This document shows positions 31,598-38,747 of a DNA stretch of 64,000 bases, piece by piece (the first letter of the stretch is position 1; every line of letters starts with the position of its first letter). The position numbers and the translations under genes are program-made. The notes beneath the pieces were generated by a model. The model did no database searches. It saw nothing but the letters and a program-made list of their open reading frames with translations, and was not told the DNA's origin. Where the stretch lies: contig JAXHMG010000003.1 of NCBI GenBank assembly GCA_034521595.1, forward strand, positions 736,001-800,000. The letters run 5' to 3'. Origin of the DNA: Gemmatimonadota bacterium. GTDB taxonomy: Bacteria > Gemmatimonadota > Gemmatimonadetes > Longimicrobiales > Gaopeijiaceae.

Positions 31598-31682
31598 CGG
31601 GACGAGCGGATGTGTCGGCGTCCCGGCAGGATTGTCGAACCATCGATTCCAACACCCGGACGAACAGGGGAAGACTGATCCC

Positions 31683-33809
31683 ATGATCGACCTCGTCGCA
31701 ATCACCAACTGGGCCTGGGTTCTCGGTGCCGTCGGCTTGGCCGTGGCCCTCGTGATCTACAGGTACGTGAAGAAGCAGCCGTCCGGATCGGAGCTCATGG
31801 TCGATCTCGGTGACCAGATCCACGACGGTGCCATGGCGTTCCTCCGCCGCGAGTACTCCGCGTTGGCCGTGTTCGTGGCCGTGGTGGCGGTGCTTCTCAG
31901 CTTGGCGATCGGCACGTTGCCGGCCATCGCCTACGTCTTCGGTTCGTTCGCATCGGTCGCGGCCGGGTTCATCGGGATGAAGGCCGCGACCCGCGCGAAT
32001 TCCCGCACCTCCGCGGCGGCGAACACCGAGGGCCAGGGAAAGGCGCTGCGGATCGCGTTCTTCGGGGGTGCGGTCATGGGCCTCGCCGTCGCGGCCCTCG
32101 GGCTCCTGGGGCTGGGTGTGCTCTACGTCCTCTACGCATCCAACGCGACCGTCGGCGCGGACTTCGAGAACTTCGCCGAGATCGTCTCCGGCTTCGCGAT
32201 GGGGGCGAGCACGATCGCGCTGTTCGCCCGTGTCGGCGGCGGGATCTACACCAAGGCGGCGGATGTCGGGGCGGACCTCGTCGGGAAGGTCGAAGCCGGC
32301 ATTCCGGAGGACGATCCCCGCAACCCCGCGACCATCGCCGACAACGTCGGAGACAACGTGGGCGACGTGGCCGGCATGGGCGCCGACATCTTCGAGTCCT
32401 ACGTGGGGTCCATCGTGGCGACGATCGCGATCGCGGCCACCGCGCCGGTTCTCGTGTCGCACCGCGCGGAGGCCGTCGCGCTTCCGATCCTCACGGTCTT
32501 GTTCGGCCTCCTGGCTTCGCTCCTGGCCATCGGGATGATGAAGCTCTTCGAGCGAAGCAACCCGGCGGCAGCGCTCCGCAACGTGACCTTCATCGCAGCG
32601 GGCCTGTTTCTCGCCGTCATGTTCCTCGTCGTGCAGTCGCTCGGCATCACGTTCACCGACACGGAGACCGGCCGTAGTTACGCGACGATCGGTCCATGGA
32701 TCGCCATCCTCGCCGGCACGTTGGTGGGCATCATGATCGGGTTGGCCACCGAGTACTACACCGCGTTCGGCCCGATCAAGAAGATCGCGGATTCGAGTGA
32801 GACGGGCGCGGCGACCAACATCATCACCGGGCTCGCCGTCGGGATGGAATCCACCGTCATTCCCGTCATCCTCATCTGTGTCGCCATCGGCGTATCGTTC
32901 TTCTTCGCCGGGTTGTACGGGATCGGTATCGCCGCCGTGGGAATGCTGGCCACGGTGGGTGTGACGATGTCGGTGGACGCGTACGGCCCGATCGCCGACA
33001 ACGCGGGCGGTATCAGCGAGATGGCCGGCCTCGGGCCGGAGACCCGCGAGATCACGGACTCCCTCGACGCCATCGGGAACACCACCGCGGCCATCGGAAA
33101 GGGCTTCGCGATCGGCTCGGCCGCGCTGACGGCGCTCGCCCTCTTCTCGGCCTACTCGTCGAAGGTGGGCTTGCAGGCGGCCGGGATCGATATCGTCGAT
33201 CCGGTCGTGGTGGTCGGGCTGTTCCTCGGAGGCGCGTTGCCGTTCTTCGTGGCCGCGCTCACGATGACGGCGGTCGGTCGGGCCGCGGCGGGCATGGTGG
33301 ACGAGGTCCGTCGGCAGTTCCGGGAGGTCCCGGGCATCATGGACGGCTCGGTCAAGCCGGATTCGGCCCGGTGCGTGGATATCTCGACTCGGGCGGCGCT
33401 GCGCGAGATGATCCTTCCGGGGGTCACGGCGGTGTTCGCCCCCGTGGTCGTCGGCTACGTGCTGGGTGTGGAGGCGCTGGGCGGCCTGCTGGCCGGCGCC
33501 ACGGTGACGGGCGTGCTCATGGCGCTCTTCATGGCGAACTCCGGGGGGGCGTGGGACAACGCCAAGAAGTACATCGAGGGAGGTGCGCACGGCGGTAAGG
33601 GCTCCGAGGCCCACAAGGCCGCCGTGGTCGGGGATACCGTCGGAGACCCGTTCAAGGACACGTCGGGGCCGTCCCTGAATATCCTGATCAAGCTCATGAG
33701 CGTGGTGTCGCTCGTGCTGGCGCCGTGGTTCGCACGGGTTCACGGTATCGAAGTGGACCCGGACGCCACGTCCTGGCTGACTCACCTCGTCGACACCCTC
33801 TTCGGCTAA
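31683..33809 (+). CDS. hppA: Membrane-bound cation-translocating pyrophosphatase (K+-dependent type)
   Basis: [52 protein letters not shown]. Confidence 0.97.
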
Positions 33810-33849: not shown

Positions 33850-35055
33850 ATGACACGGAAAGAGCCGTCCTTCGAGAACGCCCTGACGTTCGCCGCGGAC
33901 CTCATCCGAACCCCGGGCCTGTCCGGGGACGAAGGACGCGTCGCCGAGCGCGTGGAGAATGAGATGCGGGCGCTCGGCCTCGAGCGGGTGCGGATCGACG
34001 ATGTCGGAAACGTCATCGGCGTCGTGCCGGGCTCGGGGGCGGGACCTCCCATTCTCCTGGCGAGCCATCTCGACGTGGTCGCCGAAGGGGACCATGCCGA
34101 GTGGGAGGTCCCGCCGTTCTCGGGGACCGTGGAAGGCGGGTACCTGCACGGCCGAGGCGCGATGGACATCAAGGGGCCTCTCGCGGTTCAGACCTATGCT
34201 GCCGCATCCATGATCGGACGGGCGGCGGGGGACGTTGTGGTGGCCCATACCGTGCTCGAAGAGCAGGGTGGCCTGGGGATGAAAGCGTTGCTGGAGTCGG
34301 AAACCGTCGATCCCGCGTGGGTGGTGATCGGCGAAGCGACGCATGGCGACATCTGCATCGGACACCGGGGCCGGGCGGAGGTCGAAGTCCACATCCGTGG
34401 GAAGGCAGGGCACGCGAGCGAGCCGTCGCGCGCGCGAAACGCCCTGGACCTCCTCGGGGATGTCTTGGCGGCGATCCGGGCTCTGGACGAAGATCAGCCG
34501 GCGGATCCGGTGTTGGGCTCGTCCACGGCCGTCGCCACGACCGTCGATGTCGCGCCGGAGACGCGCAACGTGATCCCGGACCGTGTGCTCGTCGCAGTGG
34601 ACTGGCGGATCTTGCCCGGCGATTCCTCGGAGAGCCTGATCGAGCGTCTCGGGGCCGCGATCCGACGCCGCATGCCCGAGGTGCCGGACGGGTGGTCGGT
34701 CGACGTGAGGATCGCGTCCGTGCATCAGCGCACGTATACGGGTTTCGAGCGCGCCCGGGAGATGTACAGCCCGGGCTTCCTGATGGACCCCGAAGATCCG
34801 GCCGTGCAGGCAGCTGCTGCCGCGGTCGGTCGGCGTGACGGGTCCGATGTCCCCGCACGGGTCCGCCCATGGCGCTTCGCCACGGACGGGGGTTGGACGC
34901 GTGGCGTCCACGGAATCCCCACCATCGGCTTCGCACCCGGCGAAGAACACTTCGCCCATACCAACCGGGAACGTATCTCGGTGGACGAGTTCCGGTGGGC
35001 CCTCGAGCGCTATCCACGTCTCGTGGAGGCACTCCAGGGAGCGGGGTCGCCCTGA
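33850..35055 (+). CDS. M20/M25/M40 family metallo-hydrolase (ArgE/DapE/YgeY-like)
   Basis: SHLDVV, GRGAMDIKG, LEEQGG, IGEAT, AHTNRE. Confidence 0.88.
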   Translation: MTRKEPSFENALTFAADLIRTPGLSGDEGRVAERVENEMRALGLERVRIDDVGNVIGVVPGSGAGPPILLASHLDVVAEGDHAEWEVPPFSGTVEGGYLHGRGAMDIKGPLAVQTYAAASMIGRAAGDVVVAHTVLEEQGGLGMKALLESETVDPAWVVIGEATHGDICIGHRGRAEVEVHIRGKAGHASEPSRARNALDLLGDVLAAIRALDEDQPADPVLGSSTAVATTVDVAPETRNVIPDRVLVAVDWRILPGDSSESLIERLGAAIRRRMPEVPDGWSVDVRIASVHQRTYTGFERAREMYSPGFLMDPEDPAVQAAAAAVGRRDGSDVPARVRPWRFATDGGWTRGVHGIPTIGFAPGEEHFAHTNRERISVDEFRWALERYPRLVEALQGAGSP

Positions 35056-35138
35056 CCGGAGGACCGTGGCGCCTACCGAACCGGACGTCGTTCCGCTAGC
35101 TTGGCATGCACGCGCATTCGCGTGAAATCATTGTCCCG

Positions 35139-35217
35139 CCCCGTCCGGTCGCCTCCGCCGCAGGAGGAACCTGTGATGACGGGGCCCGTCACTCAATCAC
35201 GGACCGAGGGAACGAAG
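35139..35217 (+). promoter_or_regulatory. Structured leader of rpsF, candidate S6:S18 autoregulatory element
   Basis: Nested pairings CGGTC/GACCG, CCTCC/GGAGG, GTGA/TCAC, TGACGG/CCGTCA immediately before the RBS. Confidence 0.45.
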
Positions 35218-35838
35218 ATGCGGCTCTACGAGGTTGTGTACATCCTCGACCCGGCGCTCGACGAGAGCGCCGTAACCGCTAAGCTCGACAAGTTTCACGA
35301 GCTCGCGACGGCCCGCGGCGGAGAGTTGGAATCCGTCGATCACTGGGGTGTTCGCCAGTTGGCGTATCCGGTGAGCAACCTGAACCAGGGTTACTACGTC
35401 GTTGCGCAGTTCAAGGCGGAGCCGGAGGCCCTTCCCGAGTTCGAGCGGATCGTCAAGCTCGACGGGGAAGTGCTCCGTTACCTGTTGGTCCTCAACGAAG
35501 GGGAGCCGACGAACGGTCAGTCGATCATGGCGGAAGTGCATCACGCCGCTGGCGAAGAGGACGAGGACGAGGAGGAGGGCGAGGAGGAAGACGACGACGG
35601 TACGGCACCGCCCGAGTTCCAGGGTGGCGGTGGCCGCCGCCGCATGGAGGGACCGCCGGTTCTGCTCCTGAACTACAAGGACGTCGGGACGCTGTCTCGC
35701 TTTCTCACGGAACAAGGCAAGATCCTGCCCAAGCGGACCACCAAGGTGACGGCGCAGTTCCAGCGGCAGCTCGGACGCGCGGTCAAGCGCGCCCGGTATC
35801 TGGCCCTGATTCCTTACACACGGCGACAAGAGGGCTGA
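35218..35838 (+). CDS. rpsF-rpsR: Fused 30S ribosomal proteins S6 and S18 (single ORF)
   Basis: S6: [29 protein letters not shown]; acidic linker; S18: [43 protein letters not shown]; no stop between; alternative upstream start 35173/35176. Confidence 0.93.
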
Positions 35839-35842
35839 CTTC

Positions 35843-36787
35843 GTGGACCGGCCGCTTCCGACGGAGTCGGATGAGCGCACGGGTCGGGGGTGGCCACGTG
35901 TGGCCGGGCTTTTCGGTGTCACGATGGCGGCGTCGGTCGTGCAGCCGAGCGTGCTCATCGCCGTGCCGTTTCTCCTCCTCGCCGCGGTACGCGGCTTGAA
36001 GGGAGCCGGACTCTTCGTCGGGGCCGTGGTTGCGATGATTCTCGCGATCTCGGGCCCCCAGGACGGCTTCTGGTTCTTGGAGCGTGCGTGGGCCGTGCTC
36101 CTGGGTGGTTGGTTCGTGGCCGTCAGCATGGCGATGCCCCGGTGGCCGCTGTCGACCAAGCTGTTGACTTCGGTCGCGGGCGCGTTCGTGGTGACCGCCG
36201 CGATGCTGGCGGCCCGCAGCGGGGCATGGGAGACGGTCGATTGGGCCATCACCAACGCGGTGGAGGGCGGTATCGCGACCACGCTCCAGGCGTTGGAGTT
36301 GCTCCGGGGCGGAGACGCGATCTCTCCGGCGTTGGCCACGGCGATTCACCAGACGGCCCGTGCCCAGACCAGCGTGTTCCCCGCGTTGATGGGGATCGCG
36401 TCGATGGCTGGCCTCGCCGTGGCATGGTGGGTTTACACCAGGCTACGGGGTGAGGGGGACCAGGCCATCGGGCCGGTCCGGAATTTTCGGTTCAACGACC
36501 ACTTGGTGTGGCTCATGATCGTGGGCCTACTCCTGGTGGTCACACGTTGGGGTGACGCGCTGGCGCGCGTCGGTTCGAACGCCGTCGTGTTCATGGGGGC
36601 GTTGTACGCGCTCCGGGGCTCAGCGGTGTTCATGTTCATTAGTGGAGGCCTGTCATTGTTCGGTTACGTGCTCCTCGCTTTGGCCCTCGTCCTTGCGGCT
36701 CCCGTCGTCGTGGGTGTTGCCATGGTCGTGGGAATAGGGGATACGTGGCTGGACGTGCGCGCACGTCTGCGCGAAACGGCCGCTTGA
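35843..36787 (+). CDS. DUF2232/YybS-family membrane protein
   Basis: Multi-TM, FRFNDHLVW, GIGDTWLDVR; usual position between rpsR and rplI. Confidence 0.8.
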   Translation: MDRPLPTESDERTGRGWPRVAGLFGVTMAASVVQPSVLIAVPFLLLAAVRGLKGAGLFVGAVVAMILAISGPQDGFWFLERAWAVLLGGWFVAVSMAMPRWPLSTKLLTSVAGAFVVTAAMLAARSGAWETVDWAITNAVEGGIATTLQALELLRGGDAISPALATAIHQTARAQTSVFPALMGIASMAGLAVAWWVYTRLRGEGDQAIGPVRNFRFNDHLVWLMIVGLLLVVTRWGDALARVGSNAVVFMGALYALRGSAVFMFISGGLSLFGYVLLALALVLAAPVVVGVAMVVGIGDTWLDVRARLRETAA

Positions 36788-36809
36788 CGGATCCATGGTC
36801 GGAGGAACG

Positions 36810-37265
36810 ATGAAGCTCATTCTGAAGGAAGACGTCCCGAACCTGGGCGAAACCGGTGAAGTAGTGGAGGTCAAGCCGGGCTACGGACGCAACTATCTGA
36901 TTCCGCAGGACCTGGCCTACGTGGCCAGCGAGGTCAACATGAAGCGGCTCGAGGAGGAACGAGCACGCGCCGAGGAACGGGCGCGTCGCGATTTCCTCGA
37001 AGCCCGCCGCCGCGCTTCGCAGATCGAGGGAATGTCCCTGACGTTCGGAGAACGGGCGAGCGAAGACGGGAAGCTGTTCGGCTCGGTCTCCGTTGCCGAC
37101 GTCGTGGAGCGCGCGAACGTGAGCGGACTCGACTTCGAGCTGGAGAAGCGCAATATCCTTCTCGACGAGCCGCTCAAGTCCGTGGGGGTGTTTCCCGTCG
37201 GCGTGCGCCTTCACCCCGAAGTCGAGGTGGAGCTCGAGGTCCGCGTGGAGCGGGAGAACGACTGA
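36810..37265 (+). CDS. rplI: 50S ribosomal protein L9
   Basis: MKLILKEDV.NLG..G.VVEVKPGYGRNYLIP, GKLFGSV, RLHPEV; SD GGAGG. Confidence 0.97.
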   Translation: MKLILKEDVPNLGETGEVVEVKPGYGRNYLIPQDLAYVASEVNMKRLEEERARAEERARRDFLEARRRASQIEGMSLTFGERASEDGKLFGSVSVADVVERANVSGLDFELEKRNILLDEPLKSVGVFPVGVRLHPEVEVELEVRVEREND

Positions 37266-37291
37266 TCGGTAACAAGGACGCCGCGGGGGCG

Positions 37292-37645
37292 ATGCCGTCC
37301 GACTTTCCCCGCGAGGTCGGTCGGTCGGTCGCACTGGCCCTCGAACGGAGAGCGCAGGACGTCACGGTCTTGGACCTCCAGGGCATCTCGTCCGCTACGG
37401 ACTATTTCGTCATCGCCAGCGGCACCTCCGACGTTCAGGTCAAGGCGATCGCGGAGCACGTGGTCGAAGAGCTCAAAAAGGACGGTGTACGCGTGGAGCA
37501 TGCCGAAGGCATGAACGGCGGACGCTGGGTGCTACTCGACTACATCGACTTCGTGGTGCACGTTTTCCATCCACAGGCGCGTGCCTTCTACCAGTTGGAA
37601 AATCTCTGGGGCGACGCGCCCCGCTGGGACGCACCGGCCGCCTGA
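37292..37645 (+). CDS. rsfS: Ribosome silencing factor
   Basis: DYFVIASG, WVLLDYIDFVVHVF, RAFYQLENLW. Confidence 0.95.
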   Translation: MPSDFPREVGRSVALALERRAQDVTVLDLQGISSATDYFVIASGTSDVQVKAIAEHVVEELKKDGVRVEHAEGMNGGRWVLLDYIDFVVHVFHPQARAFYQLENLWGDAPRWDAPAA

Positions 37646-37727
37646 GCGCGACTTCGGCGGTGGGTCGTTTGCCCGACCCGACTCACCGGCCTAATGTTAG
37701 CCCGTTTCCTCCAGCCATCGTCGAGCT

Positions 37728-38747
37728 TTGATCGTCGAACTTCCTGAATGGCAAGCGTTCGCGCACGGAGCGGACTTCTGGCACCCGGACGCGTCCGAGG
37801 CGGGCCGAGTCGTCACCGTCGTGGCTCCATCCGTGACGGATCGTGACCGGTGGTCCGCGGAGCTTCTCCTGGACCTTCTCGACGAATGGAGCGAGGGGGG
37901 ACACAAGGTGATGCTGGTCGACGGCGTCTTCGAGCATCCCGCCTTGCATCGCGCGGTAGCCCTGACCAACGAGGAAGGGGCTTCGGACGCGGTCCTTTTC
38001 GGCGCGTCCGTCTCTCGAGTCGCGCGGGCCGTCCCGGACAGATCGTTCTATTTCATGGGTACCGGATCCCCGACCGGCGACCCCGGAGCGATCGCGGCGA
38101 GCCCGCGGTGGAGTCGATTGCAGCAGGGTTTCCGCGACGCCGGGGTGACCTTCGTGGTCTTCATGCGGGAGGGGTGTGCCGGTGAGGCGGAGTTCATCCG
38201 TGAGGCGGACGACATCGTGGTGTTGGCCGAGAGCCGTGACGCAGTGCCGGCGAGCGTGTCGGCGGTCGCGACGAAGGTGCGTTCGCTGGTCGGGCCGGCG
38301 TCGGACGGGACGACCTCGGACGGGCACGAAAGTGAGGTGCTGACCGAGCCGGGTGAGGCGACGTACGAGGAATTGCTCGACCCCCTCGACGACTTGTCTG
38401 GACGCGAGGGTGACGGGGTGGGGAGTTATGGACGCCACGAAGGGGCTCTCGAGGAGGCTCATGCCGTCCAGGAGCAGCCCGTGATGGACTTGAGTGGTGA
38501 GATGCCCGCCGGCACGCAAGCTGCGGCGCCCGAGGCGGCCGAGATGGAGGGCGGTGCAGGAGAAAGCGAGAATGAGCACGGCGGGAGGGCCCACCAAAGC
38601 GAGCGCGAGCCCCGCGCGGTAGGCGCCGGGCGCGCCGTGCAGGGCGCGGGGGCGGACCCCAACGCCCGCAAGAAGCTGCTTTGGGTGGCGCTCGGCGTGG
38701 TCGTGCTGGTGCTCATCGTGGTGTTGGGGGCGCTGCGGCCGGAATGA
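37728..38747 (+). CDS. Hypothetical protein: degenerate MinD/BY-kinase-like domain, acidic linker, C-terminal TM anchor
   Basis: GHKVMLVDG...PALH...EGASDAV...FYFMGTG; no GxGK[ST]; KKLLWVALGVVVLVLIVVLG; ATGA overlap with smc; TTG start uncertain. Confidence 0.65.
   Translation: MIVELPEWQAFAHGADFWHPDASEAGRVVTVVAPSVTDRDRWSAELLLDLLDEWSEGGHKVMLVDGVFEHPALHRAVALTNEEGASDAVLFGASVSRVARAVPDRSFYFMGTGSPTGDPGAIAASPRWSRLQQGFRDAGVTFVVFMREGCAGEAEFIREADDIVVLAESRDAVPASVSAVATKVRSLVGPASDGTTSDGHESEVLTEPGEATYEELLDPLDDLSGREGDGVGSYGRHEGALEEAHAVQEQPVMDLSGEMPAGTQAAAPEAAEMEGGAGESENEHGGRAHQSEREPRAVGAGRAVQGAGADPNARKKLLWVALGVVVLVLIVVLGALRPE

Follow-up and report, generated by a model that had tools for sequence, protein, structure and literature searches.

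We analysed a stretch of 64,000 nucleotides (nt) from a Gemmatimonadota bacterium of the order Longimicrobiales and the family Gaopeijiaceae (assembly GCA_034521595.1, contig JAXHMG010000003.1, positions 736,001 to 800,000 of the forward strand). This whole stretch is called the window hereafter, and positions are counted from its first letter. It contains a gene in which rpsF and rpsR, the genes for the ribosomal proteins S6 and S18, form one open reading frame (ORF). The fused gene has the following parts.

35218..35838, + strand: fused rpsF-rpsR ORF, 206 codons plus a TGA stop, with its start ATG at 35218
35227..35490, + strand: bS6 domain, residues 4-91 (Pfam PF01250, Ribosomal_S6)
35518..35607, + strand: acidic linker predicted to be disordered, residues about 101-130, which continues the acidic C-terminal tail found on S6 in the sister families
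35608..35655, + strand: junction motif PPEF-x-GG-(R/G)-G-RRR(R)-x-EGP, residues 131-146, specific to the fused family
35668..35811, + strand: bS18 core of the cysteine-free (C-) type, residues 151-198 (Pfam PF01084, Ribosomal_S18)

The translation of 35218-35838 yields 206 residues with a single, terminal stop. A Shine-Dalgarno (SD) sequence, GAGGGA (35206-35211), is located 6 nt upstream of the ATG, and the N-terminal sequence MRLYE is the common start of the window protein and of its homologues. An original prediction made from the DNA letters had described a complete S6 domain that reads in frame into an S18 core. Pfam analyses of the ORF bear this out, with Ribosomal_S6 over residues 4-91 and Ribosomal_S18 over residues 151-198, in one chain and one frame without an internal stop. 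The first half belongs to the bS6 family, with a PF01250 score of 95.8 bits (cut-off 27) over profile positions 2-89 of 90, and the second to the bS18 family, with a PF01084 score of 71.2 bits (cut-off 21) over profile positions 5-52 of 52. Other details of that prediction are correct as well: neither ssb nor priB is present between the domains, as the gap consists of 59 linker residues only; the linker is acidic and then rich in Gly and Arg; and the S18 core is devoid of zinc-binding cysteines, the protein having no Cys at all.

A Pfam profile search of the 3.49-Mb genome (93% complete) returned one S6 and one S18 match, both in 35218-35838, and hence no second rpsR in this assembly. Both domains are thus encoded in frame without a stop or frameshift, and without a separate copy of either gene. 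Judging from the genome sequence, 35218-35838 is the only source of S6 and of S18 in this bacterium.

We determined how widely the fusion occurs among relatives, starting with the window's own family as defined by GTDB (Longimicrobiales, Gemmatimonadota; simply 'the family' in the following). A sample of relatives comprised 41 genomes, 25 of them from the family. In 20 of the 25 there is one full-length match without a stop, and in four there are two matches in the same frame with no stop between them; in one family genome (G005) the gene is divided over two contig ends, and this genome was left out of the tally of fused and unfused genes. We also queried an order-level sample of 151 genomes with the S18 part of the protein. 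All 51 family genomes, including that of the window, have exactly one S18 match, which is found in open frames of 221-1249 residues (51/51), and many of these genomes are closed single contigs. In contrast, none of the 96 genomes of the two sister families that have an S18 match harbours a fusion, and their S18 frames are 61-120 residues long as a rule. Eight sister-family frames are larger (153-385 residues), and all are unfused: the coordinates place S18 two bases out of frame with S6 in seven genomes (G088, G123, G064, G084, G061, G099 and G058), and the locus fetched from the eighth (G107) contains separate genes. The S18 match is missing in four sister-family genomes that are 72-83% complete.

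At the level of the phylum (141 genomes), the fusion is present in 15 of 15 family genomes and in none of the 126 genomes from 11 other families. Several candidates were rejected along the way. The nine longest frames outside the family in the phylum-level sample (164-244 residues) correspond to separate genes with S18 in the +2 frame; in ten non-family genomes with long S18 frames (163-244 residues), S18 is two bases out of frame; and Calditrichota and other loci that match residues 1-200 consist of two adjacent genes each. The unfused tallies include six genomes flagged as unpublished (G025, G052, G103, G116, G166 and G225), on which none of our claims depends. By the sequences compared, the fusion is fixed in one sampled Longimicrobiales family and absent in its sister families, and the survey of relatives proposed with the original prediction therefore came out in its favour.

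The 41 fused loci that we fetched code for 38 distinct proteins of 206-285 residues. In addition, a collection of 5.8 billion proteins yielded 1902 matches at E-values up to 1e-5, and the best 120 of them, which come from NCBI, JGI, ENA and Logan, all carry both Pfam domains.

Because this DNA is GC-rich, an open frame alone is weak evidence for a fused gene. An antisense ORF of 380 residues (35197-36339, - strand), typical of high-GC coding DNA, overlaps both the fused gene and the next gene, and such long chance frames would be in keeping with an artefact, in which an indel removed the stop or gene calling merged two genes. However, separately assembled contigs agree with the window base for base. 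Two public salt-pan metagenome runs, X1 and X2, were compared: the Logan contig of run X1 (2254 nt) covers 34900-35852, and that of run X2 (539 nt) covers 35472-36010, each with no differing letter and no gap. The sequence across 35490-35660, where read support was to be checked, is thus matched without a stop or an indel; X1 and X2 may derive from the sample behind the window assembly, and they count as a separate assembly and not as an independent sample. The fusion is also beyond chance, since both domains share a frame and are the sole S6 and S18 matches, all 51 family genomes preserve the frame, and 27 linker lengths (see below) are all in frame. With the fusion found in all 51 family genomes and in the best 120 of 1902 database proteins, we consider the artefact refuted.

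The fused gene is preceded by a conserved RNA structure, whose elements are listed below.

35134..35211, + strand: structure in the 5' untranslated region, of the rpsF_leader / S6S18CBM type, conserved and described by a covariance model
35134-35137 with 35208-35211, + strand: helix H1, UCCC/GGGA, its 3' strand within the SD GAGGGA
35138-35145 with 35178-35185, + strand: helix H2, 8 basal base pairs (bp) and a variable hairpin cap
35186-35189 with 35199-35202, + strand: mini-hairpin H3, CCGU with ACGG, specific to the family
35204-35206, + strand: unpaired CCG, in the 3' bulge just before the SD

We aligned this leader in 36 family loci. Two loci were left out, L028, which has no such motif, and L032, in which the motif is present but was not aligned. 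The common layout is CCCGCUCC, a variable hairpin, GG(G/A)GCCCGU, a loop, CGG(A/U)CC(G/A), the SD GGGA and the start codon. Standard pairs fill 95.1% of the pair cells, versus 31-52% with the partners shifted by 1-3 columns. In five pairs, both sides change, and the covariation score was reached by none of 500 shuffles. The eight basal pairs of H2 are 94.8% paired, with four that change on both sides, and its cap is variable in length. In H1, all 36 rows have C-G at the column pairs 77/171 and 78/170, and the pair 79/169 is C-G in 35 rows and U-A in one (L058), which is the sole compensatory change in this helix. Every one of the 36 rows has the CC of the leader, with G or A as the next letter.

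A covariance model of the family leader has a single match in the window (35106-35220, 53.1 bits, E-value 6e-12), which is also its single match in the whole genome. Directly upstream of unfused rpsF genes, the model matches 12 of 23 other Gemmatimonadota loci (E-values up to 1), and their leaders have 4-5 nt where the fused family has H3. No match was obtained in L028, a family locus outside the model alignment, nor in 13 loci from other phyla. The only Rfam match in our leader scans, to FtrB (E-value 0.25), was rejected as chance.

[quoted passage not shown] The window leader resembles it in that it is located directly upstream of rpsF, with its SD in the 3' strand of the basal stem, a variable hairpin (H2) and an unpaired CC(G/A) before the SD, the latter criterion being that of Matelska 2013 (PMC3854524). 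It differs from it in its 3' bulge, which contains an additional mini-hairpin of 4 bp (14 model positions, versus 4-5 nt in the sister families), and in its presumed ligand, here a single chain. H1 is UCCC/GGGA in the fused family and CUCCU/AGGAG in the sister families. Another difference concerns the genetic context. According to Matelska 2013 (PMC3854524), the motif tends to be missing from operons in which rpsR immediately follows rpsF, whereas the leader of the fused family is present although rpsR follows rpsF directly. A similar departure from that trend was observed in the unfused Gemmatimonadota loci with rpsR directly after rpsF (L060-L081), as 12 of the 23 loci, at E-values up to 1, carry a leader of the S6S18CBM type. 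By structure and position, we file the window leader as a putative S6S18CBM-type element. The original prediction had noted that S6 and S18 repress their own operon, and the presence of this leader before the fused gene lends support to that remark; by analogy with the known systems, the fused chain would bind it and likely represses its own translation.

Further upstream, most family loci (L004-L059) contain a TAnnnTT element (35097-35102 in the window; TATACTT, TATATTT or TAGCTT) about 30 nt before the leader, with an alignment consensus of TAnAnTT. It may represent the -10 or -7 box of the rpsF promoter, and it resembles the Bacteroidetes-type TAnnTTTG element. A scan of 34950-37800 with the sigma-70 consensus detected no promoter-like site. 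The same segment contains five terminator-like sites, none of them within 35218-35842, i.e. the fused gene and the 4-nt gap that separates it from the DUF2232 gene.

In the fused protein, the S6 domain is followed by a short conserved extension, then by an acidic tract and finally by a Gly/Arg junction that leads into the S18 core. Asp and Glu make up 15 of the 29 residues between G100 and A130. We aligned 66 fused proteins, namely, the window protein, 37 proteins from the other loci, three cluster representatives and 25 of 119 other listed homologues. The G100-A130 tract is very heterogeneous in length, with 27 distinct lengths ranging from 26 to 120 residues, and in all 66 proteins it is in frame and acidic, with seven basic residues at most. 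The longest tethers, of 100-120 low-complexity residues rich in Gly, Ala, Glu and Asp, were found in L038, P0122 and P0123, whose proteins have 275-295 residues; they far exceed every S6 tail found in the sister families.

The junction is strongly conserved in the same alignment, both in its first part (P131 in 65/66 proteins, P132 in 63/66, F134 in 62/66, G136 and G139 in 65/66 each) and in its second part (R140 in 64/66, R141 and R142 in 65/66 each, G145 and P146 in 64/66 each). The motif is absent from the N-termini of S18 in the sister families. It replaces the short basic N-terminus and the CxxC of the sister S18 proteins, and the fused family has about 14 junction residues in excess of them.

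An AlphaFold2 model computed with this alignment has a mean predicted local distance difference test score (pLDDT) of 78 and a predicted template modelling score of 0.70. The pLDDT is about 94 in the S6 domain and 78-90 in S18, and it falls below 50 for residues 106-130 and 132-146; both the linker and the junction are predicted to be disordered. Foldseek comparisons of the model with the PDB gave S6 chains as the best matches, with template modelling scores normalised to the target of up to 0.92. The top 50 contain only S6 chains, and the matches include 1g1x_A, 4ybb_AF and 7k00_F. In sequence searches of the PDB, the matches were either S6 chains over residues 1-125 or S18 chains over residues 144-206, the latter at E-values of about 1e-16, and no chain spans both halves among the best 60 of 131 matches.

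We conclude, with a probability of roughly 0.8, that this locus is a single-gene rpsF-rpsR fusion whose product would function as a tethered, single-chain bS6-bS18, as the only S6 and S18 of the bacterium, under the control of its leader. This agrees with the natural single-chain S6:S18 of the original prediction, as the genome has no other source of either protein, the fusion is fixed across the sampled family and its frame has survived all changes in linker length. A few results weigh on the other side, and most of them concern the leader. Rfam 15 gave no match to it at E-values up to 1 in 34900-35900, and no rpsF leader family in 19 loci from this and other phyla (E-values up to 1). The motif is short, which makes this miss weak evidence against membership, and the naming of the leader rests on our own alignment together with the published verbal description. 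H3 and most of H1 are invariant, and thus these helices have no covariation support. The minimum free energy fold of the leader has the same three helices, but its z-score is -1.05 and 31 of 200 shuffles fold as well. Finally, the strongly conserved junction could equally be a processing site.

If so, the fused chain would be a precursor, a protease would cut it in or next to the junction, and the ribosome would contain separate S6 and S18 proteins. The conservation of PPEF-x-GGRGRRRR-x-EGP, which goes far beyond the need of a passive tether, is in favour of such a polyprotein, as is the predicted disorder of the junction, which would make it accessible. However, the Arg run matches the basic N-terminus of the sister S18 proteins, and its conservation can therefore be explained by contacts with RNA. 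Distant S6-S18 fusions (see below) are devoid of the junction motif, which argues against a common cleavage signal that goes with this architecture. A tether more simply explains why a linker of 26-120 residues is kept in frame, and we met no precedent among ribosomal proteins in this analysis. We thus find processing quite improbable and retain the uncleaved single chain as the preferred reading.

The original prediction had also proposed that in-frame ATGs at 35527 (Met104) and 35644 (Met143) might give free S18, and it had stated that neither is preceded by a clear SD. The latter is true, as no SD-like 4-mer is found 5-13 nt upstream of either ATG. The former would mean a dual output, the fusion plus free S18. 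In favour of it, besides the two ATGs themselves, 24 of 38 loci have a Met or Val codon (ATG or GTG) nine codons ahead of the S18 core, which could be a relic of an old S18 start. Nevertheless, none of these 24 codons has an SD-like 4-mer 5-13 nt upstream, and the arrangement of an SD plus a start codon found in the sister families is gone. Some in-frame start with an SD-like 4-mer occurs within the last 60 codons before the S18 core in five of the 38 loci, and seven of the 38 have no in-frame ATG, GTG or TTG in these 60 codons. As there is one S18 match per genome in the 51 family genomes, S18 can be made only within the long chain at these seven loci at least. The two methionines are not conserved either. 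Residue 104 is Met in 15 of the 66 aligned proteins; residue 143 is Met in 39, His in 11, Val in nine, Ile in three, Leu in two and Phe and Thr in one each, i.e. one of His, Ile, Leu, Phe and Thr in 18 of 66. The sequences hence make free S18 from an internal start unlikely, with no support for it as a general mechanism, and we hold a dual output of this gene to be very improbable.

In C+ ribosomal proteins, the cysteine motif binds zinc; in S18, it is a CxxC...CxxH around the N-terminal part of the core. Cysteines are lacking from all 66 fused proteins, and the fused S18 does not have the motif of the C+ form and is a C- form. By contrast with the fused family, a pattern search found CxxC...CxxH in all 22 scored S18 proteins of other Gemmatimonadota, and in one further protein that the pattern missed (L067) the motif was seen by eye. 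Of 12 S18 proteins that belong to other phyla, 11 have it too. The switch of S18 from C+ to C- maps to the same branch as the fusion; as this is one event, no statistic applies. Our hypothesis is that the loss of the cysteine knuckle is made up for by the tether or by the new junction motif. Some ribosomal proteins, S18 included, reportedly exist in C+ and C- forms, i.e. as paralogues with a zinc motif or without one. The fused S18 is likewise a C- form derived in a lineage with C+ relatives. In contrast with those pairs, in which the C- form is an extra paralogue switched on by zinc limitation, the fused S18 is the only copy, and its loss of cysteines coincides with the fusion.

The relatives suggest how the fusion could have arisen. 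Sister families and other Gemmatimonadota have separate S6 and S18 genes, and their S6 ends in an Asp/Glu tail. In unfused Gemmatimonadota, the S18 start is located 1-5 nt after the S6 stop or overlaps it, and the last S6 codons, GAGGAG, form the SD of S18. In 17 of the 96 sister-family genomes (e.g. G076, G126, G079, G087 and G055), rpsF and rpsR share one frame with exactly one stop between them. Each of these 17 genomes has a single match that extends from about residue 2 to about residue 203, and the S18 frame, of 73-74 residues, begins immediately behind the stop; stop read-through would already yield a fused chain there. With adjacent genes in one frame and a single stop, stop loss would be a short path to fusion. 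We infer that an ancestor of one Longimicrobiales family lost the S6 stop and the adjoining S18 start. The resulting chain would consist of a canonical S6 domain, the acidic tail of S6 turned into a disordered tether, a Pro/Phe/Gly/Arg junction and an S18 core without CxxC...CxxH.

S6 and S18 are described as dimerizing before they bind the S15-rRNA complex (Fu 2014, PMC3895269) and as binding cooperatively as a heterodimer (Matelska 2013, PMC3854524). Their fusion would set S6 and S18 at a fixed 1:1 ratio and remove the dimerization step, and the tether is probably long enough for both domains to take their usual places on the 30S platform. The 5' structure of the S6S18CBM/rpsF_leader type would bury the SD and display the CCG bulge, and a surplus of the single chain relative to 16S rRNA would most likely repress the translation of its own mRNA. 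A bolder version, which we regard as unlikely, is that the tether and the PPEF-GGRGRRRR junction replace the cysteine knuckle by which the N-terminus of S18 is held in all relatives, that the gene and its H3-containing leader form a self-contained feedback loop of one gene and one protein, and that the acidic tether, placed beside the mRNA exit and the anti-SD, could tune initiation. Variable S6 tails or the bS21/bS18/bS6 proteins tune initiation in related bacteria of the FCB group.

The fused chain has the same folds and belongs to the same families as the canonical bS6:bS18 pair of the 30S platform (PDB 1G1X, which contains S15, S6, S18 and a 16S rRNA fragment, and 4YBB and 7K00 of E. coli). 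As in that pair, S6 has an acidic tail and S18 a basic N-terminus, and S18 chains match residues 147-204. It differs from the pair in that it is one covalent chain, in which the free C-terminus of S6 and the free N-terminus of S18 are gone. In E. coli, these termini are presumably the sites of glutamylation by RimK and of acetylation by RimI, respectively. Another close comparison is with the unfused rpsF-rpsR genes of sister Longimicrobiales and other Gemmatimonadota. They have the same order, with no ssb or priB between them, an acidic S6 tail and a homologous leader, and their products are 47-57% (S6) and 53-71% (S18) identical to the window protein. However, they have a stop and a separate S18 start, CxxC...CxxH in S18 and no PPEF-GGRG junction.

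The architecture is not restricted to this family. An exhaustive search of 1.84 billion cluster representatives revealed many other proteins of 155-266 residues that match both halves. We picked 29 of the 150 listed representatives by coverage and length. Both Pfam domains are present in 28 of them, the exception being P0136, a truncated family-type protein. Three further picks are of the family type, and the other 25 are distant S6-S18 fusions with both Pfam domains in the order S6 then S18. These 25 are 26-48% identical to the window protein, which is below the values of the unfused Gemmatimonadota relatives; they lack the PPEF-GGRG(RRRR) junction and mostly have short linkers, and several of them are single-contig clusters. 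Given their low identity, missing junction and short linkers, the distant fusions look like separate origins, and from these comparisons, the S6-S18 fusion architecture most likely arose several times.

Full-text literature searches, with supplements outside their scope, found no paper on a natural S6-S18 fusion. Neither 'fusion' nor 'fused' occurs in the main texts of Matelska 2013 (PMC3854524) and Fu 2014 (PMC3895269), whose supplementary alignments or tables could list Gemmatimonadota or fused examples. The locus represents a known kind of system in variant form, not a new kind of system. Four features set the window's family apart: S18 has lost its cysteine motif in a change coupled to the fusion, the junction is conserved, the acidic tether can expand, and the leader is modified.

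The genes around the fused gene are as follows.

33850-35055: M20 peptidase gene (Pfam), upstream of the fused gene
35843..36787, + strand: gene for a DUF2232 membrane protein (Pfam PF09991, 37.6 bits)
36795..37265, + strand: rplI, coding for bL9 (Pfam PF01281 and PF03948)
37292..37645, + strand: rsfS, coding for a ribosomal silencing factor (Pfam PF02410, 113.6 bits)

The DUF2232 gene is inserted between the fused gene and rplI, 4 nt and 7 nt from its respective neighbours. From this spacing, it is probably part of the same transcription unit as the fused gene. A DUF2232 gene near rplI is presumably found in Bacillus as well (yybS). On the upstream side, an ORF of 725 residues (31632-33809) resembles a membrane pyrophosphatase by eye. 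Its C-terminal coding sequence is also the immediate upstream neighbour of rpsF in loci of the Calditrichota type and in one locus of the family (flanks of L020 and L049-L053). In the window, the M20 peptidase gene separates the pyrophosphatase-like ORF from the fused gene.

The interest of the fusion has its limits, as other lineages share the architecture, public protein sets already contain it, and no new mechanism is needed. One practical consequence concerns annotation. In NCBI, these proteins are annotated as '30S ribosomal protein S6' only, and JGI entries sometimes read 'ribosomal protein S6/ribosomal protein S18'; with a name that mentions S6 only, counts of S18 based solely on product names could overlook the S18 half. 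In addition, studies of central-domain assembly or of the rpsF leader could use the fused protein as a ready-made single-chain S6:S18 reagent. S6 and S18 are a classic example of ribosomal proteins that have to meet before rRNA binding and that act together as repressors of the mRNA encoding them. For the family that has fixed their fusion, the locus constitutes a natural experiment on whether formation of the heterodimer is a needed checkpoint in assembly, on the length of linker that the platform tolerates (26-120 residues here) and on whether the cysteine motif of S18 may become dispensable once its partner is tethered.

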